From an uncultured Chloroflexia bacterium (GTDB lineage Bacteria; Chloroflexota; Dehalococcoidia; DSTF01; JACRBR01), in the NCBI GenBank assembly GCA_963736015.1, contig CAVTNG010000011.1, forward strand, positions 68,442 through 132,441: 64,000 bases of DNA, in the 5' to 3' direction. The position numbers and the translations under genes were made by a program. The notes under the pieces were generated by a model. It searched no databases and had not been told where the DNA came from. It saw nothing but the letters and a program-made list of their open reading frames with translations. Of this stretch, positions 4,923-59,485 are shown one piece after another. Position 1 is the first letter of the stretch; each line of letters begins with the position of its first letter.

Positions 4923-5336
4923 TCAGGCGGCAGCGCGCGCGGCTGGAGTGTGGGTGGCGGTGATGCCGAGCGCGGCGGCTACGGTCTGCAGCTCCTCGAG
5001 CAGGTCGTCGAGGTCGACATCACCGGCGAGCGCGACGACGGCCGACAGGTCGCTCGTCTCCAGCTCGCCGGTGTCGAACATGCTGAGCAGCGCGTCGCTG
5101 CCCTCCGCGGGCGAAGCCACGAGGTCCGTTTCGCCGCCGGGAGCTGCGTCTGCGGTTAGAGCGCCATCCGCCGCGGCCTCGTCCGACTGGCCCGGCGCGT
5201 CGCCCTCGTCCCCTATCAGCAGCGGCGGGTCGTCGTCGTCCGGTTCCTCCGGCATCGCCGAGGTCGGCGGGATCTCCGCCGCGGCAGCTTCCACCGCGCG
5301 CGCCAGCTCTTTGTCTTTCTTCTTGCCAAAGGCCAC
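4923..5336 (-). CDS. Highly acidic 137-aa hypothetical protein
   Basis: Intact ORF with a Lys-rich N-terminus followed by low-complexity D/E/A-rich sequence (EEPDDDDPPLL...DVDLDDLLEEL). No family recognised. Confidence 0.6.
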   Translation of the reverse strand: MAFGKKKDKELARAVEAAAAEIPPTSAMPEEPDDDDPPLLIGDEGDAPGQSDEAAADGALTADAAPGGETDLVASPAEGSDALLSMFDTGELETSDLSAVVALAGDVDLDDLLEELQTVAAALGITATHTPAARAAA

Positions 5337-5560: not shown

Positions 5561-6485
5561 ATGCGACTCACGCTACCGCGCGTCCTGATGGGCGCGGCCG
5601 CACTGGCTGTTGTCTCGACGCTTCTATTGACGAGCGGCCTGGTGCGCTCGGCCTCATCGACGCAGGCTGCGGGCGACTGTACGGCGGACCCACTATCGAC
5701 TCGGAGGAGGCCTCGTTCCTCCAGCTTATCAACGCTTACCGTGCACAGAACGGCCTGGGGCCACTGGCGCTGTCGTACACGCTCTCGAAGTCCGCGGCGT
5801 GGAAGTCGGTCGACATGGCCGTGAACAACTACACGGCGCATGACGACCTGACGCGCACCTGGACCGACCGCATCAAGGATTGCGGCTACACGTACAACGC
5901 GTGGCTCGGCGAGAACATCGCCGTCAGCGGAACACCGGTCAGTGGGCGTTTGACATCTGGCACGGGAGCCGCCGCACGACGCCAACATGCTGGGCGGCAA
6001 CTACACCGCGATCGGCATCGGCCGCTACTACGACCCGCGAGCGCCTGGGGCTGGTACTGGACGATCGACCTGGGCAGCTATAACGACGGCTGGCCGGGCA
6101 CGCCGCCGACTCCCACGAGCACCGCCCCGGCCGCGCCCACGAATACGCCGGCTCCCAGCCGACGTCAACGCCCGTGCCGCCGTCTCCGACCGCGACGCCT
6201 CAGCCGTCCGATACCGTGCCGCCGACGGTGCAGCTCACAAACCCGAACGCGGGCGGTGTGTACAGCGGCAAGGTGAACCTGGCGGCAAGCGCGAGCGACA
6301 ACCGAGGTGTGGCACGGGTGGAGTTCTATGTCGATGGGAAGCTGTTCAAGGGCGACACGAGGGCTCCCTACGCGACCAGCTGGAACTCGAAGGGCACCGC
6401 CAAGGGGACACACACGATCATGGCGAAGGCCATCGACACGAGCGGGATGACGTCGTCGAGTTCGGCGGTGATCACGACCAAGTAG
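5561..6485 (+). CDS. Secreted CAP/SCP (YkwD-like) domain protein with a PT linker and a C-terminal Ig-like domain; frameshifted
   Basis: Signal peptide MRLTLPRVLMGAAALAVV (ORF 5486-5824). CAP strings SFLQLINAYRAQNGL, AHDDL, NIA, and MLGGNYTAIGIG are split across ORFs 4885-6276 and 5987-6640. The Ig-like end lies in ORF 6174-6485. Confidence 0.7.
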
Positions 6486-6554: not shown

Positions 6555-8477
6555 CTAGATACACGTCCCGGTTCTGTTCCACAACTCCAGCGCCGTCGCC
6601 AGCGTCAGGATCTGCTGGCGGATGGGATTCTTGGGTTTAGTGTTGTAGCCCGCCGTACTGAGCAAGAGGTCGGACAGCTGGATCGTGGTCGCAAGGCACG
6701 TTCCGTCGCCGGTTCCGGCCTTAATCCCCAGCTTCGCCGCCAGCAGCTGGCTCGCGAGCTTCTGCGTCGCATCGCTTGCCGATGTATTGTTCAAGATGAT
6801 CGATGCCTCAGCCACCGTATTCACGTCGATGTGCATCAGCGGGCTGCACGTGGTGGTGGCAGCGGTGATCGCGCAGTCCGCCCAGCGAGCCCAGCGTGAT
6901 CGGCAGCTGAGCTGACACGCACGCGTGCTTGGGATCGTTGGGCACGGCCCCAGGTGGTTCTTCCAGTAACCGACCGTCCCCGGCTCCGACGGCACCGGCG
7001 TTGACGTCGCAGGAATCGGCGTTACCGTCGGTGTATTCGTCGCCGTTGAAGTCCTCGTCGGCGTGTTCGTCGGCGTGTGCGTCGGGTGCGTCGCCGTGTC
7101 GGTCGGCGTCTCCGTCGGCGTCGCGTCGGTGTCGGTCGGCGTCTCCGTCGGGGTCGCCGTGTCGGTCGGTGTCTCCGTCGGGGTCGGCGTGTCAGTCGGC
7201 GTCTCCGTCGGGTCGCCGTGTCGGTCGGCGTCTCCGTCGGCGTGTCGTCGGCGTCGTCGGTCGGCGTCGGCGTGTCCGTCGGCGTCGCGTCGGCGTGTCG
7301 GTCGGCGTCTCCGTCGGGTGTCGGTCGGCGTGTCGGTCGGTGTCTCGGTCGGCGTCGGCGTGTCCGTCGGCGTCTCCGTCGGGGTCGCCGTGTCGGTCGG
7401 CGTCTCCGTCGGGGTCGGCGTGTCGGTCGGCGTCTCCGTCGGGGTCGCCGTGTCGGTCGGCGTCTCCGTCGGCGTGTTTGTCGGTCGGCGTGTTCGTCGG
7501 CGTGTCGGTCGGCGTGTGTCGGCGTCGGTCGGCGTGTTCGTCGGCGTGTCCGTCGGCGTGTTCGTCACGGTCGGGGTGTTCGTCGCCGTGTTGGTCGGCG
7601 TGTTCGTCGGCGGCGGAGTTGACGTTGCGGGGATGGGCGTGACGGTAGAAGTCGGCGTGTCCGGCAGCGAGCCGAACTGCTTGAAGGGAATCGTCTGTTC
7701 GCCGGTGCTGATCGTGTCTCCGGACCCGACGACCGACGCCTCGTCGAGCGTGGCCTGCAGGTTTCCCGTCGGCGATTGGCCGGGCCCGCACGCGAGCCGC
7801 GTGTCGATGCGGATGATCACGTTGTCGCCGGCCTCAAGGTTGGTGACGTCGTAGGTGACGCCGACATCCGTGGCCGTCGTGGGGATGGTCGGCAGCACGG
7901 TGCCGCCAGCCGGCACGACGAACTTGTTCACGTTCGTGACCGTGCTGTTCTTGGTGCCGACGAATCCGTCGTCAGTCGTCTTCGGAAGCGGATCGTCGCC
8001 CCCGGTAACGGATGCCGGATAATTCGATCGTCACACTGATCACCTCGGAGTGACCCGCGCCCGGCTGCCCCGTCGTGTTCGCGGTGAAACTGTTCGTGAC
8101 TCAAATCGTCTGCGAACCCGTCGCTCCAGAGTCGACTACGATCTGGATCAAATAGGTGACAACATCGCCGCAGGCGTAGTCACCGGCTTCCAGCGACTCC
8201 ACAACGTCGTCGGTCGTGCCAATCGTCCGGTCGTCGAAGACGCCGCCACCGGTCGCGTGGTTGTAGGTGAACGGCGCCGAGGCGACGAAGTCGAGGGAGA
8301 AGTCGCCGCCGTCGGCATGCGCAAGTCGAGCTGTCGCTGCCTCCGGATCTCACCGAGACGGCAATCATCGAGAGCAGGAACGCCGCGGCGGTCGCCAGGC
8401 CGAGGGCCAACGTGACGCGGACGCTGCTCCATTTCGCGGAATCTGCCGGGAATGCGGCTTGGGTGTGGTCGTGTCAT
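6555..8477 (-). CDS. Large secreted surface protein with a long Pro/Thr tandem-repeat linker and a Cys-containing GYWKNH C-terminal domain; several frameshifts
   Basis: ORF 6555-7931 plus upstream fragments in 7931-8477. These carry the signal-like [19 protein letters not shown] and [20 protein letters not shown]... The ([10 protein letters not shown])n core runs into RRRR stretches where the frame slips. Confidence 0.7.
7030..7640. repeat. Coding tandem repeat, about 30-nt period, encoding TETPTDT(A/P)TP
   Basis: Visible periodic sequence cgtctccgtcggggtcg(c/g)cgtgtcggtcgg on the plus strand. Confidence 0.85.
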
Positions 8478-8692
8478 GGCGATAGCCCCTAGCGTTAGAT
8501 AGGACGAACGGAAACCAGTCCGTACGCCATCTGGCTCGGACGAGCGCCACCCCACGTCGTCTTAACTTGGTGTGTGCTTGCGAGGCTAATGTCGCACGGA
8601 ATCCCGGGATATGTCAAGAACGATCTCGCCAAACTTGACGGTATGGATGGCTTCGTAATGTCCGGGCGTGTTCGCGGGAGCGGCAGGCGCCG

Positions 8693-10406
8693 CTAGAACA
8701 GCCCCTGCTTCTGCGCCTTCGAGAGGAGCTTGAATAGCTCGTAGAAGTTGCGACACGCCGGACTCGCTGAGCTTCTGGAGGAGGGCGCCGCGGCGGTCCA
8801 CTTCCTTGTAGATCTGGCGGCGGCGCTTCTCGTCGAGGCCGCGCGAGGGGGCGATGCGCTGCTCGAGCAGGTAGCTGTTGTTGAAGCCCGACGAACTCGA
8901 ACTCGTCCTTCACGGCGTCCCAGCGGAAGATCTCGACGAACGAGAAGGAGTCCGTTGAGCGGGTCGTAGCCAATGAGCTCGGCGATGCTGAGGATGCGGC
9001 GGCCGGGCTTGCCGTTGGGCAGACGCACCGCGCTGCCGATGACACAACGTTCAGGTTGTCGACATAGGTCTTCGGCACCTGATCGGCGTACCGGTGAGAC
9101 GCTGGATGAGCTTCTCGACCGACGAGGCGTGGAAGGTGGCGGCACAAGCGTGGCCGGTCTGCATGGCCTGGAAGGCGATGGCGCCCTCCTCACCACGAAT
9201 CTCACCGATGATGATTGCGTTCGGGCGTTGACGTAGGGCGGCCTTGAGCAGGGCGAACATACCGACGCTGGCGTTGACGTCCGACATCGAACCGCGCACC
9301 ACCTCGCGCGTCCAGTTAGGGTGCGGCACCTGGAGCTCCGGGGTGTCCTCGATGCTGACGATCTTCGCTGCCGGCCGTAGAAGCAGGTCAGCGCGTTGAG
9401 CAGCGTCGTCTTGCCGGACGCCGTTTCGCCGGAGACGAAGAAGTTCATGCCTTCCTGCGACCATCAGCGACAGGTATGCCGCCATCTCGAAGCTGATGCC
9501 GCCGCTGTCGATGATGTCGAGGATGCTCAGCGGCACCGCGGTGAACTTACGGATGGTGAAGTTGCTGCCGCGGGTCGAGACGTCGCCGCCGTAGACGATG
9601 TTGATACGGGAGCCGTCCGGCAGCGTCGCGTCAGAGATCGGGTTACGGAAGGTCACTGGCTTCTTGATGCTTCTCGGAGAGGCGCAGGACGAAGCTGTCG
9701 AGCTCTTCCATCTCGTGTGAAGATGATGTTGCGACTTCAGCGCGCCGTAGACCTTGTGCTCGATGAACACGGAGCCCAGGCCGCTGCAGCTGATGTCTTC
9801 GATGTAGGGGTCGCGGATCAGCGGCTTCGAGCACGCCCATGCCCGAGCTTGTCGCGGATCACGAGGAACTTGAGGCTTTCGAGCTCGGCGCGCGTGACTT
9901 TGAGCTTGCCGCCGCCCTTGCGTTCCCGACTTTCCGAAGGGCAGCTTGAGGAAGCGCTGCCTCGCTCGCGGCTACCATGTCGGCGGCTTCGACGGGCGTC
10001 GGGCCCGTCCCGTCACCGTCGGTCAGGTAGTCATCGATCGCCTTGCAGCAGGACCTCCGTCTTCTGCCTCCGGCGTGCTGCGCATCGGCCAGGATCTCGA
10101 CGAAGTCCAGCAGGCGGAACTCCATCTGCTCGATCAGATCCGCCAAGCGCGTCCGAACTCGGCTCGATGGCGATGTAGTAGTTTCGGGCCTCGGCGTGGT
10201 CCGGGAAGATGTGGATGTAGGTGCCGTTGCCGACGGGGTAGATCAGGTTCGGATCCTTGATGTCGCCCATCTTGCGGTTCGCTTCCGGGTAGTAGTCCGG
10301 CACGCCGAACTCGCGCGAGCGGCACCTTGTGCAGGTACGCCATGAGGTGCGGCGCGCGCTCGGCCTGCTCCCGCAGTTCGGCGCGAGGAGGTTGTGGATC
10401 GGACAC
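8693..10406 (-). CDS. arlI: Archaeal-type type IV filament/archaellum ATPase ArlI (FlaI)-like; multiple frameshifts
   Basis: Fragments 10134-10406, 10031-10456, 9859-10146, 9051-9770 and 8693-9448. Motifs: NLIYPVGNGTYIHIF...YYIAIEPS, FTIRKF, Walker A GETASGKTTLLNAL, IVSIEDTPEL, RQRPNAIIIGEIRGEE, FQAMQTGH. Confidence 0.8.
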
Positions 10407-10483
10407 GAAGGCGCCGCGCCACCCCTGTGGTCATCGATCCCGTGGCTCGGGGTCATCGAACGGCAGCCGCTGCGGCATCCCCT

Positions 10484-11206
10484 CTACGCCTTCGCGCTCG
10501 ACACCGGGATGATGCGCATCCCGAGCCCCGGCTCCACATCGAACGTGATGATGTTGCCCGTGGTCTTCTCGGCGCCGCGAACCTTCGCCACCTCGAGCAC
10601 CTTCATAAGCTGGTCGCGCACTTCCTCGGTCCGCAGCCGCAGGTGCGCGTCGCAGAGCGAGCGCATACGCATGAACATCGCCTCCTCGAACGCGTGCGAG
10701 TGGAGCGTGAAGAAGATCGTCATGCTCTCGGTCGACGAACTCCTTGACGCTGGTGAGGAACGTCAGCGTGTGGCTCTCCGGCACCTGTGACACGAACGAC
10801 GTCAGCGAGTCGATGAACATGCAGTCGAAGCTGCCCTTGAGCGTGCCGATGTGCGCGTAGCAGCTCGTCGAACAGCCGTCGGCTGCCTCGGGGCTCATCG
10901 CCGCCGGCGCGCGGGTACACATTGAGCGCGCCCAGCAGGAAGAAGTCGGTCACGTCGAGGTCAAGGCTGCCATCTGGCGGAAGAGGCTCGCGGCGTGTTC
11001 TCGGTCGTGTACAGGGCGGAGCGAAAGCCGCTGTTCAGCGCGCCGTTGATGAGCTGCTGCGTCACGACGCACTTGCCCGGCGTTCGACTGAGCCCTCGAT
11101 GAGGATCAGCGAGCCTTCCGGGATGCCGCCGCCCATCTTCTTGTCGATCTCGGCGCTCCCCGTGCGAGAGGACACGCCGGCTGGTCTCGATCGGTTCCGC
11201 TACCAC
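10484..11206 (-). CDS. arlH: KaiC/RecA-fold ATPase ArlH (FlaH)-like; frameshifted
   Basis: Fragments 10961-11206, 10720-10953, 10431-10922 and 10484-10723. Motifs: EIDKKMGGGIPEGSLILIEG, NAGKCVVTQQL, FIDSLTSF, KVRGAEKTTGNIITFDVEPGLGMRIIPV. Confidence 0.75.
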
Positions 11207-11300
11207 TGCTGGCCTCCATCCCGATAACCGGCCCGGTCCATGCTCGATGAGGCTGCCCCGGCCGGCTCTGCATCCCTGCGACGGCGCCCGCTAGCGGACG

Positions 11301-11314
11301 CGTACGCGCGTACG
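11301..11314. promoter_or_regulatory. Perfect 14-bp palindrome CGTACGCGCGTACG upstream of arlH; candidate operator
   Basis: Read directly from the sequence. It lies about 95 nt upstream of the arlH start, in a 300-bp non-coding gap. Confidence 0.3.
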
Positions 11315-11513
11315 GAGGCCGGCATCCGCTGGTCTCCCATATCTATGTCGGCACCGGTGCGAGCGGGTTTAGGTGCGGGCACCTGAGAGACGCGGTGATG
11401 TGCGGGAAAGCCCTACGCCGCGTCCAGAAGATCCCTCATACATCGGTGTCACGATCGAGGGTGCTCTCGCCACGCGGGTCGGATGCTGGATAAACGAAGG
11501 CGCGGACTGTGGG

Positions 11514-12330
11514 TTAATCGCCCCGGCGCAGGAAGCTCTCGACTGCCTCGAGCCATTCCGGATCCTCGCCGCCACCGGTCCGCGGCGCGAGGACGCGCAG
11601 GCGTGCGTTCGGGAGCATGGCCGCGAGCTCTTCGGACAACTCGGGCTGACGGAATCCGATGGCGGGGCGGCAGAGCACGAGCGTTGGCATCCGCAGCTGA
11701 AGGACCATCGCGCGAACATCGATATCAGCCGTCACCTGCCGAAAACACGGCAGCGCTTCGGGATCCATCGACGCGCGCAAGAGCGCGGCGCGCTGCTCGA
11801 TGTCGAAGTCCTCGCTGGAGAAACGGTGCTCCCACGTCGCCTGCGAGAGCGTATACGAACTCCCACTCTTCGTTCGTGCGTGGGTGGGCCTCCGCGCGCG
11901 CTCGCACAGCCGGAAGATCATAATAGTCGCGTCCACACACGTAGACGTGATCCAGGATCAGGTGGCTCACACGCTCAGGGTGGGCGGCCGCGTAGGCGAT
12001 CGCCGCCGGGCCGCCGGACCATCCACCCCAGAGGGCAAACCGGTCGCGCCGCAGAGCGTTGACGACGGCCTCGATATCAAGGACGCGAGCCTCCAGCGAG
12101 AAGTCTCGTGAGGAGCGCTCCGACAGTCCGGAGCCACGCCCGTCGTACTGGACGACGAGATAGCGTTCTTCGAGCGCTTGTACGGTCGGGCGAACCGCCG
12201 TGTAGCTTCGGCGCAAGAGCAGGTGGCTGCCCGAAATCGAACTGGCGCGCAGGAGCGCTGCGCCCTCGCCGGCGGCCTCAAAGGCGATGCGGCAACCATC
12301 GGCGCTGGTGGTGTACTGGATCTCCGGCAT
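11514..12330 (-). CDS. Alpha/beta-hydrolase domain, either a separate gene or the C-terminal half of a SARP fusion; one internal frameshift near 11930
   Basis: ORFs 11725-12330 and 11514-11936. Strings: VVQYDGRGSGLSE, FALWGGWSGGPAA (nucleophile elbow), LVLCRP. Confidence 0.7.
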
Positions 12331-13097
12331 CGGCGGAGCGACATCAGTAGCCTGTCGCTGCTCGATCTCCCCGGCGAGATCTGCGTCTCCTTCGCCGGCG
12401 CCACGCCGATCTGGATGGCCAGCTCGGCTCGCGTCGCTTCGTAGTGCCGCAGTGCTCCCACCGGATTTCCAAGCGCATTCAACGCCCGCATCACGCCCCG
12501 ATGCGATTCTTCTCGCTGCGGGTCGATTGCCGCAGCCGCCTGGAATCGGCGCAGCGCGATCTCCGGCGCGCCATCGCGTTCATGACGCTCGGCCGATGCT
12601 AGCAGTACACGGAGGTGCAGCGAGCGCAGGCCCTCGCGCAGCGTCTCGGCCCAGGGCTCGTGGCTGTCAGCTTCCAGCAGGTCTCCGGCGTAGAGCGCGA
12701 GCGCCGCGTCGAGCGCCGCTTTTGCACCATCCGCGAGAGCCGCCTCTGCCGCCTCACGGAAGGCCACGACGTCGATCCACACATCAGGGTGCAGCTCAAC
12801 GAGCGCGCCCGAGCGTCGAACGACATCGCTCATCGATCCGGGCAGGCGGGATCGGAGCCTGTGGACGTTCTTTCGCAGATTGCTCGCCGCCGCATCACCG
12901 TCAAGTTCGGGCCAGAGCGCGTCGGCAATGCGGTCCCGATGCATGGCGCGTCCCGGCTGGAGCGCGAGCAGCTTCAGGACGGCCGCAGCCTTCCGGCGCG
13001 GCCACCCGTCATCGATGAGCATCTCATCGCCGACCGAAACCGAGAAGCGGCCAAGCAGTTGCACCCGCACCTGCCGGCCGCACGTGTCACAGGTCAT
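12331..13097 (-). CDS. SARP-family transcriptional regulator (OmpR-type DNA-binding domain plus BTAD)
   Basis: N-terminal 255 aa of ORF 11967-13097. Strings: VQLLGRFSVSVGDE, LLALQPGRAMHRDRIADALWPE, LYAGDLLE, HRGVMRALNALGNPVGALRHYE. The frame of the downstream hydrolase stays open across the junction. Confidence 0.8.
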
Positions 13098-13374
13098 CGC
13101 TGCACCAACCTCCCCCTGTTGGTCGCTGTCGATGCCTCGCCCCCGCCGAGGTAGATTTGATTTTCCTCACGACTTGACACCCTGTCAATGCCGATCGCGA
13201 GCAATCTACATCGGTGGGGAACGCGCAGGGGACGGGCAGGGAACGCCCCGCACGTCAATATCGCCGCAACGAACGCCGCACGCGCGGGGCGTTGAAGCCG
13301 CGCGTCATTCCCCGCTAGCTATTCGGAACCGGCCGGGCAAGTCTTTTGTCTTCTTCAGCTGAGGAGGGAGCACC

Positions 13375-16300
13375 GTGCAACCGCATACGACACGAACGAA
13401 TTACGGCTCAGAACGGGGCTGGGCGCGCGGCGCGCTCCTAGCAGTCATCGGCGCTGTCGTGGCGATGACCGCGCTTCTCGGCGGGACGCGGCCCGCACAA
13501 GCGCTGCCTCCGTGGATCGTCAACGACGCGGGCGACACCATGGATGTTGCGCCCGGCGACGGCGCCTGCAAGACGGCGACGTCGTCGTGCACGTTGCGCG
13601 CCGCGATCATGGAAGCGAACGCCTGGGCGGGCAGTGAGAGTATCTTGTTCGCCATACCGGGCGGCGGCGTCCACACGATCTTGCCCGGCTTTACCACCGG
13701 CGTTCCCCTGCCCAGCATCACGCCCGGCGCGGTCATCATCGATGGCACGTCGCAGCCCGGCTACGCCGGGACCCCGCTCATTGAGATCCAGGGTAGCTTC
13801 GCCGGCGCGGGCGCCAACGGCATCGCCCTCGTGAGTGCCGGAAACACCGTGCGCGGGCTCGCCATCAATCGCTTTGGCTTTGCCGGCATCCACGTCGCAC
13901 TCGGGTCCACCGGCAACACCATCACCTCCAACTACGTTGGCACCGACCCTACCGGCAGCTTCGGCATCCCCAACGGCACCGGTATCGCGCTGTATGGCTC
14001 GACCAACACCGTCGGTGGGGTCCTCGCCGTCGGCAACCTGATCTCGGGCAATCTCAGCGGCGGCGTGCTCATCGATGCATCAGGGGGGAATGCCGTGAGC
14101 GGCAACCGCATCGGCACGAACGCGGCCGGCACCGCCGCTGTCGGGAACACCTTCGGAGTCCAGATCCGAAATGGCGCAACGTCCAACGTCATCGGCGACG
14201 GTCTCACACCCTACCGAAACATCATCTCCGGCAACACGGCGGAAGGCGTGCGGATTGACGGTGCAGCGACGACCATGAACTTCGTCGTCGGGAATGCGAT
14301 CGGCACGGATGCCACCGGCACGGCAGCCATACCGAACGCGGTCGGCGTCCTCGTTTCGGGTGCCTGGACGAACCACATCGGCTGCGGCTCAGCCGGCTGT
14401 TTCAGCCCCAACTATGGCAACCTCATCTCGGGCAACACCTTCGAAGGGCTCCACCTCACATCCGGCGCCAGTTCGAACACCGTCCAGGGAAACGGCATCG
14501 GCGTAAACGTCGCCGGCACCGGCACGATTCCCAACGGCGGCGTCGGACTGCTCATCGACGGTGGCGCCTACGGGAACAGCATCGGCGGATCCGGCGGCTA
14601 CGCCGGCGGCGACCGCAACTTCATCTCCGGTAACGGCGGCTCCGGCGTCGTGATCGACGGCGTGGGCGCGACGGACAACGAAGTCATCGGTGCCTACATA
14701 GGCACCGATGGACAGGCACTTCGCCCCTCGGCAACGCGGGCGATGGCATCCGCATCAGCAGCGGCGCCGCGTTCAATTCCATCGGTGATGGGAGCGCCGG
14801 CGGCCGCAACGTGATCTCCGGAAACACGCTCGCCGGCATCAACATCCAGTCTGCGGGAAGTGACAGCAACACCATCAGGGGCAACTACATCGGAACCGAT
14901 GCTACCGGCACGGCGGGCGTTCCCAATGCGTCGAGCGGCATCGTCATCGGCAACGGCGATGCCAACGTCGTCGGCGGTCCCGCCGTCGCCGACGGTAACG
15001 TGATCAGCTCAAACATCGGATGTAACGTCTGCGTGTTTGGTCCGGCAACGAACACGGACATCCGCAATAACCTCCTGGGCACGAACGCCGACGCGACGGC
15101 AACGCTCCTCGGAAGCTCGTGGGGCATCATGGTCTCCGGTGATCCCAGCGGCACGACCGCCATCAACAACAACACGGTCGGCGGTAACGGGATCGGGATC
15201 TACATCACCGCGAGCGTCGGTATCCTGGGCTACTTCCAGGCCGGGAACACGATCGGGACGGACCAGACCGGCGCGACGATCCTGTCGAACACCGGCGATG
15301 GGTTGTACTTCGATGGCGGAGCCAGCGTCTGGCAGTTTGGCCTGGGCAAGATCGCGTACAACGGCGGAAACGGCGTGGGTATCGTTGGGGCTGCAACGTC
15401 CAACATTTGGGTGAGCAACAACAATGAGATCCATGATAACGGCGGGCTCGGGATCGATTGAACGAAGATGGGCCGACCGCTAACGACGTGAAGGATGCGG
15501 ATAGCGGTCCAAACGGAGTGCAGAACGCGCCGACAATCATCGCCGCAACCGTGTCCAATGTCTCGCTTACCTTGAACAGTACCCCGCACAGGCAGTATTG
15601 GGTCGATCTCTTCTGGAGCACGACGTGCGATTCCTTCCGGGGGTGGAGAGGGCGAGCACCTCATGGGTGGAGCGATCGGTTTCTACACCGACGCGAACGG
15701 AACGCTGAATATCGGCGGTCTATTGGCGCCCGCTCCTCCGGGCTCCTTCATCACCGCGACCGCATCAGACATGGGCGACTTCGCCGGCCAGACGGCTCCG
15801 AGTTCATCCGAGTTCTCGAATTGCGTGCCACTCGTCCCTGCGTGCGTCGGAGATCTCGACTGCGACGGCATCACAGATTTGGCGGGCGATAATTGCAATC
15901 AATTCAGCAATCCTTCTCAGGCGAATGCCGACTCGGGCCCGCCACCGTGGTGGGCAGGAAGTGGGAGTATCGATAACGGCAGCGGGATAGCGGCCAACGA
16001 CACCACCATCCCCAACGGAGACGGTGAGGGTGACCCCTGCGACCTCGATCGAGACAACGATGGGTTATTTGACGTCTACGATAGCGAACCGCTGCTTGCG
16101 GTCTCGTGCGGTGGCCTGTTCGTAGGTGCGACCGACGCCAACCCCAACCCCGGCTACGGCGACAACACCGACGTTGACGGCAACGGCCCGTCCTGGGATA
16201 CAGACAAGGACGGGGTTCGCGATGGTGTCGAGTGCGACCTCGGCTTCAACCCGCGCAGCCCGGCCTCGAAACCATCGCAGGCCCAATGCGCCAACCTCCC

Positions 16301-16655
16301 GACGGGTGGCATTGGTCTGAAGACACCCACCACGGATCTCGACAACGACGGCTTGCCAGCCTACGACGAATACTGCAAATGGGGTACGGAGGACGACCCC
16401 GGTTCACCTCACACCTTGGCGACCGCGCTCGATACCGATCAAGACGGCAAGAAGGACTGCGTCGAGGCGAACGACACCAACGGCGACGGCGTCCAGAACT
16501 TCCCGGGCGACACCGTCAACTCCGCGAAAGCGGCGAACAGCATCATCCAGAAGACGCTGGACTTCGACCTGAACGGCGACAACGTCGTGAACTTCCCGGG
16601 TGACACCATCCTCTCCGCGAAGATGGTGAACCACGTCGGAGGCATCTGTTCGTAG
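13375..16655 (+). CDS. Giant secreted protein: CSLREA motif, about 30 parallel beta-helix (PbH1) repeats, TSP type-3-like Ca-binding repeats and dockerin-like repeats; at least 3 frameshifts
   Basis: ORFs 13375-14814, 14811-15461, 15458-15892 and 15663-16655. GGAGG Shine-Dalgarno before GTG 13375, and a signal peptide. Strings: TSSCTLRAAIMEAN, repeated GNxIGTxxxGxxxxPN, DLDRDNDG/DTDKDGVRDG, DTNGDGVQNFPGDT/DLNGDNVVNFPGDT. Confidence 0.8.
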
Positions 16656-16789
16656 CACGCCAGCCCCGCATCGGTACGGCAAGAGCCCTCGCTTCGGCGG
16701 GGGCTCCGGCTATCCGGCGCGGTACCGCGGTCGATCGAGCCCGGGCGCGCCGGTTTCCTTCACGCGGGCGCTGGCGTACGCTGCGCGGC

Positions 16790-18213
16790 ATGAGCGCGGT
16801 CCCCGAATCGCTGTTCCGGCCGAAGACGGTCGCCGTTGTCGGCGCGTCGTCGAATGTCGACTCGCCGGGGCACGACTACGTGCGGGCGCTCATCGAAGCG
16901 GGCTTCAAGGGGCCGATCTACCCGATCAACCCGCGGGCGCCGGAGATCCTCGGGCTGCCGGCGTATCCGTCGCTCTCCGACACGCCGTCGGGCGTCGATC
17001 TCGTGATCTCGTGCATTCCCGCGGACGGCGTGCTCGACCTCATCGGTGAGTGCGCCGCGAAGGGCGTCTCGACGCTGCACCTGTTCACGGGGCGCTTCAG
17101 CGAGACCGGCGACGAACGCGCGGCTCGTCTCGAGCGGGAGGTGCAGGCCGCGGCGGCCGCGGCGGGAATCCGGATCCTCGGGCCGAACTGCATGGGGGTG
17201 TTCGACTCCGCATCGGGGCTCTCGTTCCGGCCCGACCTCCCGACGCGGCCGGCGATGTCGCCTTCATCTCGCAGAGCGGCAACAACTCCGTCGAGCTGAT
17301 GCTGCATGGCGCCGCGCGCGGCCTTCGCTTCAGCAAGGTCGTGAGTTACGGCAACGCGCTCGATCTCACGGAGGCCGACCTGCTCGAGTACCTGGCTGAT
17401 GACGACGACACGCGCGTCGTCGGCGCATACATCGAGGGGACGCGCGACGGCCGCCGCCTGTTCGACGCCCTGCGGCGCTGCGCCGGGAAGAAAGTCCGTC
17501 GTCGTGCTCAAGGGCGGCCGCACGGGTGCGGGGTCCCGGACCGCCGCATCGCACACGGCGGCGCTCGCGGGCACGCGCCAGGTCTGGAGCGCGGCGCTGC
17601 GCCAGGCGGGAGCGGTGGAGGTCGCAACGTTCGACGAGCTGATCGACATGCTCGTCGCGTTCGCGTTTCTGCGCGAAGTCGCCGGTGCCGACGATGCGCG
17701 TCCGCGCGTGGGCGTCGTCGGTGGCGGTGGAGGCCGCGCGGTGCAGTCAGCAGACGTGTGCGAGGAGGCCGGACTCGCCGTCCCCGGGCTGCCCGACACG
17801 ATCCGCAGCTGGCTGCGGAGAAGGCGCCGCAGCTCGCCGAGTGGGTGGACAACCCGGTCGATCAGTCGATCCTCGCCGGCAGCGGCGTTTCCGGCGCGCG
17901 CATACTCGAGATGATGCTCGAGGACGACACATTCGACGCGCTCATCGCCAACGTCGGCGAGGACTGGGTGCTCGGCCGGCCCGACGCGATCGAGCGCATG
18001 GAGCACCTCGTGGGCCGCTTCGCCGACATCGGCGTGAAGGCGAAGAAGCCGCTCGCGTTCGTGCTCGGCCCCTCGGACTCGGCCGACGAGACGAAGTGGC
18101 GCGCGGTGGAGGCGGGGAAGCAGCGGCTGACGGACGCGCGGCTGGCGGTGTACCCGAGCGTCGACCGCGCGGCGCACGCGGTGTCGCGGGTGCTGGAACG
18201 CCGCCAGTTTTAG
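16790..18213 (+). CDS. CoA-binding / ADP-forming acyl-CoA synthetase (succinyl-CoA synthetase-like) family protein; frameshifted
   Basis: ORFs 16790-17299, 17050-18213 and 17399-17914. Strings: KTVAVVGAS, ILGPNCMG, FISQSGN, VVLKGGRTGAGSRTAASHTAALAG. Confidence 0.75.
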
Positions 18214-18240: not shown

Positions 18241-19352
18241 CTACTCGACCGCCAGCGCCCGATCGATCTCTTCGGCGTGCGCCGGGTACTTCGCCGCGAA
18301 GGCGCGCAACATGCCGAAGCAGCCGCTGATCATCATGTCGCCGTGGGGCGTCGCGAAGTAGGGGCCGAGGCGGCTGCCGCGGAGGCGGCCGCGCTGCGGG
18401 CCGGTGACGGCGACGATGCCGACGCCGTCACTTCGCGACGGGGGGTCGGGCGCGTAGAAGACGCCGTGGCCCTTCGAGCCGAAGACCTCCTCGTGCTGGA
18501 GCGAGCCGGCGACGAGGCGCTCGCTGAAGTCCTCGATCTGCTCGCGGGTCATCTCGCCGGTGTGATGCTCGTAGAGGCTGATGATCTTCGTGCCGGCGAG
18601 GTGGAACGCCAGTGCGTGCATGTTGCCGAGGTTCAGCACGAGCTGCCGCTCCGACGCGGCCACGCGCGGGTCCTGCAGAGCGCCGAGCGCGGCGGCCGGG
18701 CCGGTGTCCAGGAAGACGATCGGGCGTCTCGGCGTCCTGCTTGCGCGCGGTGGCGACGACGGTCCGCGCGCGCGTCAGGTAGTCGGGAAGCTCGTCCGGC
18801 AGGTAGGCGAAGGCATCGAGGTCGTTGCGACGCTCGACGACGCGCCGCAGGTGGTCGAAACGGAAGAGGCGGTCGGAGTACCCAGGCGGCGCGGCGCCGT
18901 GGTCGAGGCAGCCGACGGCGATGCCATCGAACGAGGGCGACACATCGAACGCGGCGAGCGCGAGGCGGATCGCCGGCAGGTCGAGATCCTGAAGCTCGAC
19001 GCGCTCGGCGGCCGGCAGCGCCTCCGCCTCATCGTCGCTGACAACGCGGATGCCCATGCGGGCGACCTGCTCCGGGTCGTCGTCGAAGGTCTGCGCGGCC
19101 TCGGGCGTGGCGTAGGCGGCGTAACCGGCGCGGAGGTGGTCTTCGAGCGCCCAGTGGCAGGGGCCGCCGCCCTGGATCACGCCCGTCAGCAGGAGCGGGG
19201 CGCCCTCGGCCGTCGCCCGGCGGATACGGCCGGCCGCGATCTGGGTCGCGCTCGGCAGCACCATCTTGACGCTGTTCTCGACGGGCCCGCGTCGAGTCGA
19301 AGAGGAGGATGTCCTGCGTGCCGGTGCCGATGTCGATGGCCAGGATGCGCAC
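18241..19352 (-). CDS. DUF1786-like ASKHA-fold protein; frameshifted
   Basis: ORFs 19029-19352 (MRILAIDIGTGTQDILLFD), 18428-19264 and 18241-18663. Confidence 0.6.
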
Positions 19353-25523: not shown

Positions 25524-25659
25524 TCTCCGCGGCGCGCCGTCGCATCGCTCTCACATACAAATCCCGCCGACGTGCTGCGACATCTTCGCCGAGACAATGG
25601 TGTCGCCGGTGAAGTTGACGACGCCGTCGCCGTTGAGATCGAAGTCCTCGTGCGCGTGA

Positions 25660-35316: not shown

Positions 35317-36411
35317 TCAGGGGAAGACTGCGTCGCAGTCCAGGTCGGCGAGGGCGGCGGCGGTACGAGCGGTCCACTCATCGAAGAGGCGGAGGCCGCG
35401 TTCGTTACCGAAATCAATCGAGCCGATGCCGATGACGTTGTAGACGAGGCAGAAGAGCGCCGAGAGCCGGTAATCGAACAGGCACTGCTCGAAGTCGTAG
35501 TCGGTGACGCCGCCCTTGACCAGCGTGCCGTGGTAGTCGAGCAACCACTCCTTCTCGTGGGCACGGCGCTGATCCACCGGGACGTTTCCGGTGACGAAGT
35601 AGGCGATGTCGAAGGTCCCGATGCCACGGTTGGCGATCTGCCAGTCGACGACGGAGAGTGCATCCGCGTCGTTCCCACCGAAGAACAGGTTGTCGAGCCG
35701 ATAGTCGCCGTGGACGATCGTGCGCGGGCGCGCGGCGAGCGCGTCGAGGATGACGATGATCTTCGTGGCGAGACGCTCGCCGGTGCGGCGCAATGCAGGG
35801 CTCACCTTTTCGCCCACGTGGTCGAGGAACGGCTGCCAGGTGTCCTGGTACGCCTGCTCCGCGGACTGGTTGATCGGGTCGTTGATGCAGGGCATCCAGG
35901 CCATGGACTCGAGATCCGGGTGCGCCCACCACTCAGCGTGGAAGACCGCGATGTCGTGAATGGCCCGCGCGGACTGTGCGGGCGAGCAGGAGTCGAGCTG
36001 ATTGCCGACGCGAGCGGGGGCCATATCCTCCATGAGCAGTACGAAGTCTCCGGAAGTAGTGTCGATATCGGCGTGGAACACGCGCGGGATGCGGAGGGAG
36101 ACGCGCGGGGCGATCTGCTGGTAGAAGCGGATCTCTCGCTCGTAGAAGTGGAAGAGCATCGCGACCTCGCGAGAAGCGGGATCGAGCACCGGAAACTTGG
36201 CGATTACGGTGGCGGGCGCCCCGGATACCTCGGGGTCGTATCGGAGCGAGAGACGGGCGAGCTTGCCGAGGAAGCCCGTACCGACGCCGATCGTCTCGGA
36301 GTCGAACGCGCTCACATTCGCGCCGTTCAGAGCCCCGCTGCCGGTGAGTGCCGTTGTCAGCCACTCCGGGGTCAACGTCTCCGGGCTCGGCGGGATGTCC
36401 AGTTTCACCAT
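35317..36411 (-). CDS. Phosphotransferase-family protein (aminoglycoside/ecdysteroid-kinase-like, CHK/EcKL type)
   Basis: Intact 364-aa ORF with IVHGDYRLDNLFF and VVDWQ. Confidence 0.7.
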   Translation of the reverse strand: MVKLDIPPSPETLTPEWLTTALTGSGALNGANVSAFDSETIGVGTGFLGKLARLSLRYDPEVSGAPATVIAKFPVLDPASREVAMLFHFYEREIRFYQQIAPRVSLRIPRVFHADIDTTSGDFVLLMEDMAPARVGNQLDSCSPAQSARAIHDIAVFHAEWWAHPDLESMAWMPCINDPINQSAEQAYQDTWQPFLDHVGEKVSPALRRTGERLATKIIVILDALAARPRTIVHGDYRLDNLFFGGNDADALSVVDWQIANRGIGTFDIAYFVTGNVPVDQRRAHEKEWLLDYHGTLVKGGVTDYDFEQCLFDYRLSALFCLVYNVIGIGSIDFGNERGLRLFDEWTARTAAALADLDCDAVFP

Positions 36412-36490
36412 GCCCTCTCTCGCTACTGGATGCGACGATGCCGGGCGGGGACGCCGATGTCAAGGGACAGGGCGCGCAAGTGAGCGGGCG

Positions 36491-37525
36491 CTAATACGAG
36501 GCGACGAGCGTCTCTTCCTCGGTCGGAAGGCTCCGCTTGATGACGTCCAGGTACTCGAGCGCGACGCCGGCGCCGATCGCGACGCAGTCGAGCGGGTTCT
36601 CGGCGACCTGGCACGGGGACGCCCGTCTCCTGCGTGAGCAGGATGTCGAGATGGCGCAGCAGCGCGCCGCCGCCGGTGAGCACGATGCCGCGGTCGATGA
36701 CGTCGGAGGCGAGCTCCGGCGGCGTGCGCTCGAGCACGCTGCGTGCCACCGACACGATCGTCGCGAGCGAGTCCTGGATGGCGGCTGTCACATCGCTCGA
36801 CGTGACGGTGAGGGTCTTCGGCAGGCCGCTGATCTGGTCGCGGCCACGGACCTCCATCTTGAGGTCTTCGTCGAGCGGGACGCGCCGCGCCGATGGTGAT
36901 CTTCATCTCTTCGCGCCGTGCGCTCGCCGATCATGAGGTTGTAGCGGCGCTTGATGTAAGCGACGATCGCGTCATCAAGGCGGTCGCCCGCGACGCGCAC
37001 GCTCTCGCTGACGACGATGCCGTACATCGAGATCACGGCGGCTTCGGTGCGCCCACCGCCGATATCGACGACCATGTTGCCGCTGGGCGAGTTCACCGGT
37101 ATGCGCGCGCCGATCGCCGCCGCGAGCGGCTCCGGCACGAGGTGCACCGGGCGGCGGCCGCCCGCCTGCTCCGCGGCGTCGCGGACGGCGCGCTGCTCGA
37201 CGCTCGTCACGCCGGCGGGAATGCAGACCATCACTTCGGGCTTGACAAGGTTGAAGCGGCCGACGACGCTCGAGATGAAGTAGCGGAGCATCGCTTCGGT
37301 GATCAGGTAGTCGGCGATGACGCCGTCGCGCATCGGCCGGATGACCGAGATGCTGCCCGGGACGCGGCCCATCATCTCGTGCGCCTCGCGGCCGACGGCC
37401 ACGACGGTGTTGTCGCGGTTCGCGAGCGCCACGACCGACGGCTCGTTGACGACGATGCCGCGGCCCTTGACGTAGACGAGCACGTTCGCCGTGCCCAGGT
37501 CGACACCGATGCGCTTGGGAAGCAT
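36491..37525 (-). CDS. mreB: Rod-shape-determining protein MreB; frameshifted in the C-terminal half
   Basis: ORF 36788-37525 ([14 protein letters not shown]..., [10 protein letters not shown]) plus fragments 36460-36906 and 36423-36857. The reconstructed end is ...LVASY, with the stop at 36491-36493. Confidence 0.85.
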
Positions 37526-37594
37526 GTTCCCGTCCGACGGGGGGTTCAGTCTGCGGAACGCCTGTCGATGGTGGCCGATTGCGGGGGTTGGCCG

Positions 37595-38859
37595 CTACGC
37601 GCGCTCGATATCGGCGCCGAGCGCGCGCAGTTTACCATGCAGGTCCTCGTGCGCGCGGTCGATGTGGTAGACATCGCTGATTTCCGTCGTACCCTCGGCG
37701 ACGAGCGCGGCGAGCACGCAGGCGCTCCCGGCGCGCACATCGAGCGCCTGCACCGGCGCCGCCGGCAGCTTCGTGGGCCCGCTGATGATCGCGGTCTGTC
37801 CGGTCGCGACGACGTTCGCGCCCATCTTCCGGAGCTCGGTGATGTAGAGCAGCCGGTTGTCGTATACGCGCTCGTGGATGGTGCTCGCGCCGCTCGCCTG
37901 GGTGAGGAACGCCGCGAGCTGGGGCTGCAGGTCGGTCGCGAGGCCGGGATAAGGCAGCGCCTGCGCGTTGACGGCCGGGTAGAACCACCGACCTCGACCC
38001 GCATCCCGGCGTCGGTCGGCTCGATGGTGACGCCCGCCTCGCGCAGCTTCCAGATCAACGCGTCGAGATGCTCCGGCACGGCCTCCTCGATTTCGATGTC
38101 GCCGCCGTGATCGCGGCGGCCAGCGCGAACGTCCCCGCTTCGAGCCGGTCCGGATGACGCGATGCTCGGTGCCGCCGCAGCACGCGGCACGCCTTCGATG
38201 CGCATGAACTGTGTGCCTGCGCCTGTGATCTTCGCGCCCATCGCGTTCAGCATCGTTCGCCAGGCTCGCGATCTCCGGCTCGCAGGCGGCGTTGACGATC
38301 GTCGTCTCGCCTTCGCGAGCGTCGCCGCGAGCATGACGTTGAGCGTGCCCATGACGCTCGGGTAGTCGAGCACGACGCGGCCGCCACGCAGCGTGCCGTC
38401 CTCCGAGACGTCGAACATGTCGCCGTCCTGGCGCACCGTCGCGCCGAGCATGCGGAAGCCGGCCAGGTGCACATCGAGCGGGCGAATGCCGATCGCGTCG
38501 CCGCCGGGCGGCGGGCAAGACGCGCGCCGAACCGGGCGAGCAGCGGGCCCATGACGAGAAAGCTCGCGCGCAGCCGGGCAGCCAAGGCGCGGCGGCACCT
38601 CGTGCGCTGGAGATTCGCGCGCAGTTGATGCGCAGCAACGCCCGGTGCAGGGTGCTCGACCGTCGCGCCGAGGTGTGCGAGGATCTCCTCCATCTGCCGC
38701 ACGTCGCCGATGTCGGGGACGTTGTGGAGCACGACATCGTCGGCGGTAGAGCAGCGCCGCGGCGATCGCGTAGTCGGCGCCGTTCTTCGAACCGGCTACG
38801 CGGACGCGCCCCTAGAGCGGGCGGCCGCCGGTGATCCGATAGTTCGAGCCGTGAGCCAT
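37595..38859 (-). CDS. murA: UDP-N-acetylglucosamine 1-carboxyvinyltransferase MurA; several frameshifts and an in-frame TAG at codon 16
   Basis: Fragments within 37595-39124, 37546-38598 and 38247-38732. Strings: VAGSKNGADYAIAAALL, LHNVPDIGDVRQMEEIL, ...LRALGADIERA. Confidence 0.85.
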
Positions 38860-42968: not shown

Positions 42969-44173
42969 GGCGGCCTCTGATTGCGTTGAGTGATCGCGAT
43001 CTGGGGCGAGGGCGCGGATGCGGGCGACGGCGTCGGGGAGGATCTCGAGGACGCGGTCGATGTGCTGCGTGGTGTTTTCTGTGCCGAGGGTGAGGCGGAG
43101 GCTGCCGCGGGCGAGGTAGCGTCGGCAGGCCCATGGCGACGAGGACGTGCGAGGGCTCGAGGGAGCCGGTGGTGCAGGCGGAGCCGCTGCTGGCGGCGAT
43201 GCCCTGAGGTCGAGCTGGATGAGGACGGCCTCGCCTTCGACGCCTTCGAAGGCAGAAGCTGGAGCTGTTCGGGAGGCGCTGCGCGGGTCGGCGGCGCCGG
43301 TGACGATGTGCCGGGGATGCGCGCGGGCAGCTCCTGCGAGAGGTGGTCGCGCAGGGCGGCGAGGCTGCGCGTTGCGGGCGTCGAGCTCGTCGTAGGCGAG
43401 GCTGGAGGGCGGTGGCGAGGCCGACGGCGCCGGCGACGTTCTCGGTGCCGGCGCGGCGGTTGCGCTCCTGGGAGCCGCCGACGGCCTGGGCGCGAAGGGG
43501 GTGCGCGCTGCGGACGTAGAGGGCGCCGACGCCCTTCGGGCCGTAGATCTTGTGGGCGGCGATGGAGAGCAGGTCGACGCCGAGGCGTCGACGTTGATGT
43601 CGAGGGCGCCGGCGGCCTGGACGGCGTCGGTGTGGAACGGCGATGCGGCGGTCGCGGTCCTTGACGATGCCGGCGAGCTCGGCGATGGGCTCGATGGTGC
43701 CGACCTCGTTGTTGGCGTACATGATGCTGACGAGGACGGTGTCGGGCGTCGAGGGCGCTGGCGAGGGCGTCGGGGTCGACGAAGCCTTCGCTGTCGACGG
43801 GCAGGTAGGTGACGTCGAAGCCGTCGCTTCTCGAGCTGCTCGACGGCGTGGAGGACGGCGTGGTGCTCGATGGCGCTGGTGATGATGTGGCGGCCGCGGC
43901 CGCGCTGGGCGGCGGAGGCGACGCCGCGGAGGGCGAGGTTGTCGGACTCGGTGCCGCCGCTGGTGAAGACGATCTCGTTGGGCTTGCGCCGAGGATCGCG
44001 GCGACGGTGCGGCGGGCGGCATCGAGGGCTTTGCGGGCTTCGCGGCCCTCGGCGTAGATGCTGGAGGGGTTGCCCCAGGCGTTCGGCGAGGTAGGGGAGC
44101 ATCGCCTCGACGACGCGGGGGTCGAGCGGGGTGGTGGCGGCGTGGTCGAGGTAGATGCGGTCGGTGGGGTCAT
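42965..44173 (-). CDS. Cysteine desulfurase (NifS/IscS-type class V aminotransferase); many frameshifts
   Basis: Homologous strings are scattered over three overlapping minus-strand ORFs: IYLDHAATTPLDPRV, NPSSIYAEGREA, IVFTSGGTESDNLALRG, ITSAIEHHAVL, SIAAHKIYGPKGVGALYV. Confidence 0.8.
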   Translation of the reverse strand: MTPPTASTSTTPPPPRSTPASSRRCSPTSPNAWGNPSSIYAEGREARKALDAARRTVAAILGASPTRSSSPAAAPSPTTSPSAASPPPPSAAAAATSSPAPSSTTPSSTPSSSSRSDGFDVTYLPVDSEGFVDPDALASALDARHRPRQHHVRQQRGRHHRAHRRARRHRQGPRPPHRRSTPTPSRPPAPSTSTSTPRRRPALHRRPQDLRPEGRRRPLRPQRAPPSRPGRRRLPGAQPPRRHRERRRRRRPRHRPPASPTTSSTPATRSLAALRDHLSQELPARIPGTSSPAPPTRAAPPEQLQLLPSKASKARPSSSSSTSGHRRQQRLRLHHRLPRALARPRRHGPADATSPAAASASPSAQKTPRSTSTASSRSSPTPSPASAPSPQIAITQRNQRPP

Positions 44174-44190
44174 CGCTGCCTCATTCTAGA

Positions 44191-44550
44191 GGGAAGTGGG
44201 GAGCGGGGTGTGGGACTTGCGGCGATAGGCGGGGCTTTGAATGATGTGCTGAATTTGGCGAAATGTGACGTTTTCTGATTGGAATAGGACGCAAAGCAAT
44301 CTTTCGTGGGTGATTGAATTGCGGGCGGGTCGCGGGGGAGGTGAGAGGCGGGACGTGCGACGTGGGAGGACGGGCGATGGGTGGTGGGCATGCGGGGATT
44401 CTAGGGCGGGGTAGGGTGAATTCTAAGGGGGTGCTGGCGTGTTGGGGAGCCCTCGCCCTGCCCTGCGGCTACCCTCTCCCAAGGAGGGAGAGGGCGACGG
44501 CGCGACACGGGAGGCGAGCGGTGGGAGAGGGGAGGCCGGACGGGCGCCGT
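44191..44550 (+). repeat. Intergenic repeat cluster: G-rich GGGAAGTGGG-type blocks, an AT-richer core and the hairpin CCCTCTCCCaaggaGGGAGAGGG (44472-44494)
   Basis: Read directly from the sequence. It shares GGGACGTGCGACGTG (44350-44364) and flanking similarity with 49676-49812. Confidence 0.7.
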
Positions 44551-44554
44551 GGCG

Positions 44555-44944
44555 TCAGAAGCCGATGAGGAGTTCGACGGGCTCGCCTTGTTCGAGGTGG
44601 GTGATGAGTTCGGTGACGGCGTCTTGTTCTTCTGGCCAAGCGGCAGCGTGCGTACGGAGGGTGCGGATGGCTTCGGGCGTGGGTTCGATGAAGCAGTATC
44701 GAAGCTCGAAGTCTTCGAGATGGCGCTCGAGGGCGTTCATCAGTTGGAAGCTGACGCTGCGGGCTGGGGAGGTGGGGTTGATCTGCATCGTGTAGCCCAT
44801 TGGTTCGTCCCTTCGTTCCGTGCGAATCCTCGCTCTTCTGAGAGCCGCGTCGTCGATCTCGTTGTAGTCTTCGTGTTTTCCGAGGTGCGCGTCAGCGCGA
44901 GAACACATCGTCGCAGAGCGCGCGCCCGCATACGGCGCAGTCAT
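44555..44944 (-). CDS. Hypothetical protein encoded downstream of mcrC (129 aa, or 81 aa from ATG 44800)
   Basis: Intact ORF. The internal start MGYTMQ is preceded by GAAGGGA. No family recognised. Confidence 0.5.
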   Translation of the reverse strand: MTAPYAGARSATMCSRADAHLGKHEDYNEIDDAALRRARIRTERRDEPMGYTMQINPTSPARSVSFQLMNALERHLEDFELRYCFIEPTPEAIRTLRTHAAAWPEEQDAVTELITHLEQGEPVELLIGF

Positions 44945-45022
44945 CGCGTGAACTGTAGGCTTGACTTACAGGCAGTAGTTCGCCGCAACCGCCCGCGCAG
45001 AACTGCATCGCGTCCTGAGTTT

Positions 45023-46474: not shown

Positions 46475-46483
46475 TAGAGGCTA

Positions 46484-47960: not shown

Positions 47961-47963
47961 CGT

Positions 47964-49373: not shown

Positions 49374-49675
49374 CGCGCGCGGGCCGGGCTGTGGGATAGG
49401 TGGCGGGTGGCGAGGCGTGGCGGCGGCGTCCTGCAACAGGCAACGTGGCTCCCTCCCGGCGGTTGGGTCAGATGATGAAGATGAGCGAACCAGGGTCAGA
49501 CAACTGTGTGTGAGTGTCTTGAGCGCGCGAATCCCGAAACCTGCGTGCGCGACCTCGCCCCTGTGTTGTTCCCTCTGCCCTCTGGAGGGAACACCCGCCG
49601 TTGAGCGGGCGGGTGAGGTCGTCGGAATACCCTCAGGACAGGGTGGAGAATACATTCGGGGTGATGGCAATCAAG

Positions 49676-59340: not shown

Positions 59341-59485
59341 GCGCGGCGCCGGGCGGTCAAGGCTGGTCGGGTTGCGTCTCTCGGGGTGATTGAGCGGTGG
59401 CGTTGGGTGTGAGGGCGGGCGTTCGTATACTCCAGCGTGGGCGCCGGTCGGCGCCTGTTGTGTCTTCTGAACCTGCGGTGATGAG

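Follow-up and report, generated by a model that had tools for sequence, protein, structure and literature searches.

The window analysed here, a 64-kb stretch of contig CAVTNG010000011.1 from a Chloroflexota-like bacterium, carries on its minus strand two neighbouring genes, arlH and arlI, that encode the ATPase pair of the archaellum, and, about 3.3 kb from arlI, a gene for a small acidic protein whose homologues directly follow arlI in related loci. The features that concern these genes are given below.

11207..11526, no strand assigned: non-coding region upstream of arlH, the presumed promoter region, including a 14-nt palindrome
11206..10487 (coding; gene to 10484), minus strand: arlH (flaH), KaiC/RecA-fold regulator of ArlI, 239 residues after correction
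10478..8696 (coding; stop codon 8693-8695), minus strand: arlI (flaI), archaellum motor and assembly ATPase, about 590 residues after correction
4923..5336, minus strand: small acidic protein of 137 residues, intact open reading frame, homologue of the gene directly after arlI in relatives

As sequenced, neither arlH nor arlI is intact. No long open frame is present on the minus strand between positions 8693 and 11206, where three-frame translation reveals one protein sequence hopping between frames, with 19 single-base frameshifts in arlI and seven in arlH. Both proteins were reconstructed by a frameshift-aware dynamic-programming alignment of the window DNA with the intact orthologues of a related locus (L002), leading to an ArlI with 78% identity and an ArlH with 85% identity to these orthologues, each with zero in-frame stops, and encoded by genes only a few bases apart. 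All the strings that the first-pass annotation had quoted from the translations were found (GETASGKTTLLNAL, FTIRKF, IVSIEDTPEL, RQRPNAIIIGEIRGEE, NLIYPVGNGTYIHIF and YYIAIEPS).

Profile searches confirmed the proposal that the pair is of the archaellum type rather than of the CpaF/TadA type. The corrected ArlI scored 610.4 bits with the NCBIfam equivalog model of archaellum FlaI (NF058587; cutoff 550), with a crude stitch of the fragments at 553 bits and the intact relatives at 638-657 bits, and ArlH passed the FlaH subfamily model PRK06067 (245.5 bits; cutoff 194). Among solved structures, the best match of ArlI was to FlaI (4ii7, 405 bits, E=6e-120), ahead of GspE-like 2oap (269 bits), CpaF (143 bits) and VirB11 (64 bits), and that of ArlH was to FlaH (4yds), with an end-to-end alignment, 4wia being also matched. 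The Tad ATPase CpaF/TadA is also a member of the secretion-ATPase superfamily (Pfam T2SSE), but ArlI resembles it far more weakly than it does FlaI, and ArlI did not pass the models of other families (157 versus a cutoff of 373 bits for TadA, 189 versus 1000 bits for the bindosome BasE model, and likewise the VirB11 model). The domain organization is like that of the FlaI-FlaH pair of Sulfolobus acidocaldarius (4ii7, 4yds), residues 200-585 of ArlI, the C-terminal ATPase domain, aligning to 4ii7, and the ATPase motifs GETASGKTT, SIEDTPE, IGEIRGEE and TGH..TFHA are retained. The window protein differs from the archaeal one in its bacterial host, and in an N-terminal region that exceeds the part aligning to 4ii7.

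The other components of an archaellum were not detected in the 64 kb. A tblastn search of the window with ArlB, the ArlCDE-like protein, ArlG, ArlF, ArlJ and the post-ArlJ protein of three bacterial archaellum loci gave no further match, and a six-frame motif scan found neither an A24-peptidase motif nor an archaellin-type signal peptide, in agreement with the earlier report that arlJ, archaellin, arlF/G and prepilin peptidase genes are missing from an otherwise bacterial window. No contiguous canonical archaellum operon emerged, and no TadB/C, TadZ or Flp genes were seen among the reconstructed proteins of the window, as read by eye rather than scanned with profiles. With respect to the single-cluster definition of an archaellum (PMC12488501), the window therefore holds of the system only arlH and arlI, besides the small acidic gene. 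As for the non-coding region upstream of arlH, the palindrome reported there (CGTACGCGCGTACG, 11301-11314, 95 nt upstream of arlH) is real and perfect over its 14 nt, but unremarkable, as the window contains seven perfect palindromes of this length; with no sigma-70-like promoter site found near it in the 11207-11526 region, it was dropped as a candidate regulatory site.

The evolutionary position of ArlI was established by a protein search, which retrieved 120 homologues, some of them named proteins of Dehalococcoidia metagenome-assembled genomes, and by a neighbour-joining tree to which 80 metagenome loci were added. Together with two metagenome loci and 90 protein clusters, defined at 90% identity, the window protein forms a clade of 93 members (bootstrap 100/100), in which it is basal, the other 92 grouping at 88/100. 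A sister clade of 12 members (bootstrap 100/100) joins it at 86/100, and a clear identity gap sets the ArlI clade of the window apart from the canonical clades. The grouping that includes the window ArlI consists, as far as its examined members are concerned, of bacterial archaellum loci, and the phylogeny does not put the ATPase inside the Tad/CpaF clades.

Gene order is what distinguishes this clade. In the one locus of the sister clade that was examined (L089), the order is canonical, four arlB genes and a further gene preceding arlG, arlF, arlH, arlI and arlJ, and in more distant bacterial loci (L004, L005 and L009-L016) the order is arlB (one or more), arlCDE-like, arlG, arlF, arlH, arlI, arlJ and a small gene. 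Among the matches listed from a metagenome scan with the window ArlI, which were mostly distant loci, arlJ adjoins arlHI with few exceptions, in bacterial as well as in archaeal loci, the order H-I-J being nearly universal in archaea and broken here. Inside the clade of the window, instead, arlH-arlI was found as a lone pair, the flanking ±10 kb being devoid of further arl genes (L001, L002/L003, L006 and L087), or, in two genomes (L088/L090 and L091), as an arlH-arlI-small gene unit lying beside, and divergent from, an arlB-arlB-x-arlG-arlF-arlJ-x unit on the other strand. The assignment of the arlHI pair of the window to a Dehalococcoidia clade with a split layout is, thus, well supported.

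The complementary half of the system was searched for with the ArlJ protein of L088, one genome per species being scanned. The scan identified 15 arlJ loci in metagenome-assembled genomes of Dehalococcoidia/Chloroflexota, in all of which arlF is directly followed by arlJ; in 13 of the 15 no arlHI was present in the surrounding sequence, which extended to full 10-kb flanks for five of these 13. One arlJ locus (L104) occupies positions 1.62-1.64 Mb in OY969567.1, a 3,617,538-bp record that carries arlB, arlG, arlF and arlJ, and a lone arlHI pair (L001) lies at 47-69 kb of a record of 3,617,538 bp, so that the two halves are found on the chromosome of one relative at a distance of approximately 1.57 Mb. 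Furthermore, a protein search with an ArlJ of the split clade returned 76 full-length clusters at 73-92% identity, followed by a gap down to 55% or less, defining an ArlJ clade that matches the split ArlI clade (about 90 clusters) in both size and discreteness. A Pfam scan of the arlCDE-like protein and of ArlJ gave no significant family. As a side observation, L088 encodes (7141-8955, minus strand) a membrane protein of about 600 residues that has a weak Cache-like match and resembles histidine kinases at its C-terminus. It is conserved ahead of the archaellin genes in split-clade loci, also in L091, L095 and L101-L104, and is a candidate sensor controlling the filament locus.

On this basis, the arlHI pair of the window is probably the motor half of a split bacterial archaellum, whose remaining genes would lie elsewhere on the chromosome, with the arlJ locus of the source genome presumably outside the 64 kb. 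The locus would encode a cytoplasmic motor module, in which ArlI is predicted to be the hexameric ATPase powering filament assembly and rotation and ArlH its KaiC-like regulatory partner, with the small acidic protein as part of the same unit. By analogy with archaea, the ArlJ platform would be the docking site of ArlI, which, under the control of ArlH, would power the assembly of the ArlB filament and its rotation against the ArlF/G stator (PMC12488501). As to the origin of the arrangement, the ancestor probably had a canonical arl2-type operon with arlHI between arlF and arlJ, from which arlHI would have been excised or inverted into a divergent unit, an intermediate that may survive in L088 and L091. 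Later rearrangements would have dispersed the two halves, from adjacent to more than 1 Mb apart, leaving arlHI as its own transcription unit and a second locus that keeps arlB, the arlCDE-like gene, arlG, arlF, arlJ and the post-arlJ gene.

Several observations weigh against this reading. The arlJ/arlB locus of the source genome was not seen, the 64 kb representing less than 2% of a genome of approximately 3.6 Mb, and the placement of L001 and L104 on one replicon is based on identical record length and data source rather than on overlapping sequence. ArlH scored 165.9 bits with the ArlH equivalog model NF052589, as compared with 174 bits for the intact L002 orthologue; indeed, the ArlH proteins of the split clade all fall under the cutoff of this model (166-174 versus 215 bits), whereas that of the canonical locus L004 exceeds it (217.7 bits). 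The Walker A motif of the window ArlH (11078-11060, minus strand) reads GSSNAGKC where all the compared orthologues have GKS and the KaiC/RecA pattern is G..GK[ST]. The cysteine directly follows a frameshift site, and may be due to a wrong base call or to a genuine Ser-to-Cys substitution at a position that nucleotide binding normally requires. Finally, the density of frameshifts in arlI is the highest in the window (7.4 per kb from the frame path described below, versus a mean of 2.3), and by alignment arlI and arlH have approximately 10 per kb, a roughly fourfold excess over the two syntenic neighbours (2.1-2.7 per kb). Because of this local excess, some real decay of arlI and arlH may have taken place.

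The latter points bear on the alternative by which arlH-arlI are true pseudogenes, gathering frameshifts in a lineage from which the other archaellum genes have disappeared, as also suggested by the first-pass annotation when it considered a decaying remnant. Such an explanation would account for 26 frameshifts in 2.5 kb, more densely packed than anywhere else in the window and about fourfold denser than in the adjacent syntenic genes, for the lack of any further arl gene in the 64 kb and for the cysteine in place of the Walker A serine of ArlH. However, the nature and distribution of the frameshifts point elsewhere. Every one of the 26 indels is of ±1 nt, with 19 insertions and seven deletions, while natural decay usually favours deletions, and of varied length. 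A codon-usage Viterbi frame path was computed over the whole window, and frame switches were found in 31 of the 35 gene groups of at least 500 nt, including those of the essential genes murA (37638-38785, 4.4 per kb), mreB (36492-37559, 2.8 per kb) and dnaA (47995-49383, 2.7 per kb). Densities near that of arlI were seen in a cysteine-desulfurase fragment (6.8 per kb) and in an ABC ATPase (5.9 per kb). Since essential genes cannot all be pseudogenes, the assembly must carry many single-base indel errors, and frameshifts spread in this way over the window are not a mark of dead arlHI genes. The errors are distributed very unevenly over the 64 kb, a few genes being free of frameshifts over 1.1-1.4 kb (35321-36415, 57727-59106 and 59481-60818).

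The reconstructed ArlI, too, speaks against real decay. Conservation at invariant positions was taken as the measure of decay because synonymous sites are probably saturated at approximately 78% amino-acid identity. There are 86 columns without variation among 199 other ArlI sequences, bacterial and archaeal, and the window ArlI keeps all of them, the conserved residues of its ATPase motifs included, and at 74 near-invariant columns only four changes were found, all conservative. No nonsense codon is present, and the ArlI branch is not lengthened with respect to those of intact relatives, the root-to-tip distance in the neighbour-joining tree being 0.142 for the window and 0.141 for the intact P0001 sequence. 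The coding information of the locus is, thus, preserved. The 26 frameshifts are probably sequencing or assembly errors rather than mutations, an artefact being far likelier than decay, and we consider it unlikely that the pair is a dead remnant.

The other alternatives concern the autonomy of the pair and need to be weighed together with the genes that surround it, listed here.

5642-6480: 276-residue protein with no family assignment, between arlI and the small acidic gene
6555-8314: PT-repeat secreted protein, between arlI and the small acidic gene
11527-13134, minus strand: apparent fusion of a SARP/BTAD-type transcriptional regulator and an alpha/beta-hydrolase domain, assigned on visual inspection of the translated sequence, between arlH and the CoA-binding gene
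13415-16644: beta-helix secreted protein of 1073 residues, between arlH and the CoA-binding gene
16776-18193, plus strand: CoA-binding/succinyl-CoA-ligase-like gene, synteny anchor, three frameshifts
18242-19350, minus strand: DUF1786 gene, synteny anchor, three frameshifts

The last two genes show 70-81% identity (tblastn) to the genes adjacent to arlH in L006, L007, L008 and L087: the CoA-binding/succinyl-CoA-ligase-like gene is directly upstream of arlH in all four, and in L006 the DUF1786 gene is found there as well. On the other side of the pair, the small acidic gene is directly 3' of arlI in L001, L006, L087 and L088. Its coordinates in the related loci are as follows.

L001: 12000-12362
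L002: 13094-13408
L006: 11915-12328
L087: 11874-12239
L088: 11850-12191

The homology of the window gene is indicated by a tblastn match of the post-arlI protein of L088 to positions 5213-4962 of the window, and by a C-terminal motif, LL.MF...E..D.S....LAG(D/E)V...DL(L/I).EL.T.A.A(L/M)G, shared by the window protein and those of L001, L002, L006, L087 and L088. These proteins have 104-137 residues, with a MAFGKKK-like N-terminus, a linker rich in Ala, Pro, Asp and Glu and a conserved C-terminal amphipathic segment, and gave no Pfam match. The gene that follows arlJ in canonical loci encodes a protein of similar architecture and may be a paralogue. A conserved neighbourhood is therefore outlined (DUF1786, CoA-binding protein, arlH, arlI and small acidic gene), all the members of which are present in the window, although pushed apart, the small acidic gene being displaced by inserted genes.

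The SARP-hydrolase gene is inserted immediately upstream of arlH, where the relatives' arlHI loci show no such gene, and the PT-repeat and beta-helix proteins are not next to arlHI in L001, L006, L007, L008, L087 and L088. Most of the relatives' loci lack both proteins. From these sequence comparisons, the large secreted proteins that flank the pair are lineage-specific insertions rather than conserved partners. The C-terminal domain of the beta-helix protein (about 290 residues, window 15770-16644) contains TSP3-like calcium-binding repeats and ends with the motif DLNGD.VVNF.GDTI.SAKM..HVGG. A homologous TSP3/dockerin-like domain is found, with 55-60% identity, in two large proteins near arlH in L002/L003 (L002 1514-2269 and 5056-5928), and the terminal motif recurs alone in the window at approximately 25560-25650; the domain may be a surface-anchoring or sorting module.

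A first form of autonomy is that ArlH and ArlI, along with the small acidic protein, have become an ATPase module that does without ArlJ and archaellins, or one that the archaellum shares with another envelope machine. The physical uncoupling of the pair from arlJ would then mirror a functional uncoupling. We regard this possibility as decidedly improbable. Genes of the Tad pilus (a small Flp-like open reading frame, TadE, TadG-like and CpaB/RcpC) were noticed 6-9 kb downstream of arlI in L001 (17384-21131) and L002 (20191-21767); a Tad-pilus link was considered and dropped, the Tad genes being absent from the window, L006, L087 and L088.

A more specific proposal, put forward together with that of a remnant, is that of a stand-alone two-ATPase module that has been repurposed, without ArlJ or archaellins, for instance for export or assembly of the large secreted proteins nearby. 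In its favour, such proteins flank the pair in the window, and the C-terminal domain of its beta-helix protein has homologues in two large proteins close to arlH in L002/L003. However, secreted proteins of this kind are absent beside arlHI in the six loci mentioned above, and in the window they interrupt the conserved neighbourhood; insertions into a conserved neighbourhood speak against an export role of ArlHI. Moreover, the recurrence of the C-terminal motif at approximately 25.56 kb indicates that the family of this domain is probably abundant in the genome. ArlI shows neither accelerated evolution nor loss of conserved positions, and the arlH-arlI unit is intact and conserved across a Dehalococcoidia clade in which the missing genes are present as a separate locus, relatives with the same lone pair having arlJ loci. 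To our knowledge, no secretion ATPase of this superfamily works without a platform protein. Little credence can therefore be given to a repurposed module. Very improbable is also that a complete canonical archaellum with its own arlHIJ exists elsewhere in the genome and that the pair is a duplicated accessory ATPase module: ten Chloroflexota genomes do contain an additional archaellum locus, which in nine of the ten is incomplete (PMC12488501), but no arlHI lies between arlF and arlJ in any of the 15 arlJ loci of the split clade, so that the lone pair looks like the only copy, and the ArlJ clade is about as large as the ArlI clade, each being set off from the canonical clades by an identity gap.

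Two further features of the window were noted. The region at 44173-47994, beside dnaA, has a weak coding signal, a lower G+C content (62-63%) and fragments resembling McrB-like AAA GTPase motifs, and may be a restriction-system island. The GC skew is near zero up to approximately 40 kb and strongly positive (0.15-0.26) from there to 64 kb, a switch that does not coincide with dnaA (48-49.4 kb, minus strand).

Archaella are already known in this phylum. Archaellum clusters have been described in SAR202 isolates (PMC10444878), the archaellum of Litorilinea aerophila was shown to be functional, and a census reports 243-244 complete archaellum clusters, with the loci identified by co-localization in a single cluster (PMC12488501). 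The system considered here is formed by the same families as those of L. aerophila and of the SAR202 bacterium 'Ca. Lucifugimonas marina', namely ArlH and ArlI in the window and also ArlB, ArlCDE-like, ArlG, ArlF and ArlJ, with the arl2-type G-F order, in its relatives, and it belongs to the same phylum and the same class (Dehalococcoidia). The difference is in the separation of arlHI, in the window and in a clade of about 90 clusters, where the pair is either adjacent to and divergent from the arlB..arlJ genes or more than 1 Mb away. No mention of a split arlHI was found in 2026 preprints on the distribution of the archaellum and of type IV filaments (TFF). Thus, the system is a known one, the Chloroflexota archaellum, while the split layout of this clade seems to be undescribed in the literature examined.

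With archaella established in Chloroflexota, the presence of the ATPase pair itself is no surprise. What appears to be new is that, in a Dehalococcoidia clade of considerable size, the genes for the motor ATPases are separated from those for filament, stator and platform, at distances up to more than 1 Mb. A practical consequence for genome scanning is that, when ±1-nt indels are found across essential genes, assembly error should be assumed before a pseudogene is called. Furthermore, censuses based on a single cluster would score genomes with the split layout as incomplete or miss them, so that archaellated bacteria may be under-counted. For the biology of these organisms, the split implies a separate transcriptional control of the motor ATPases, and it singles out the conserved small acidic protein as an uncharacterized partner of the motor.

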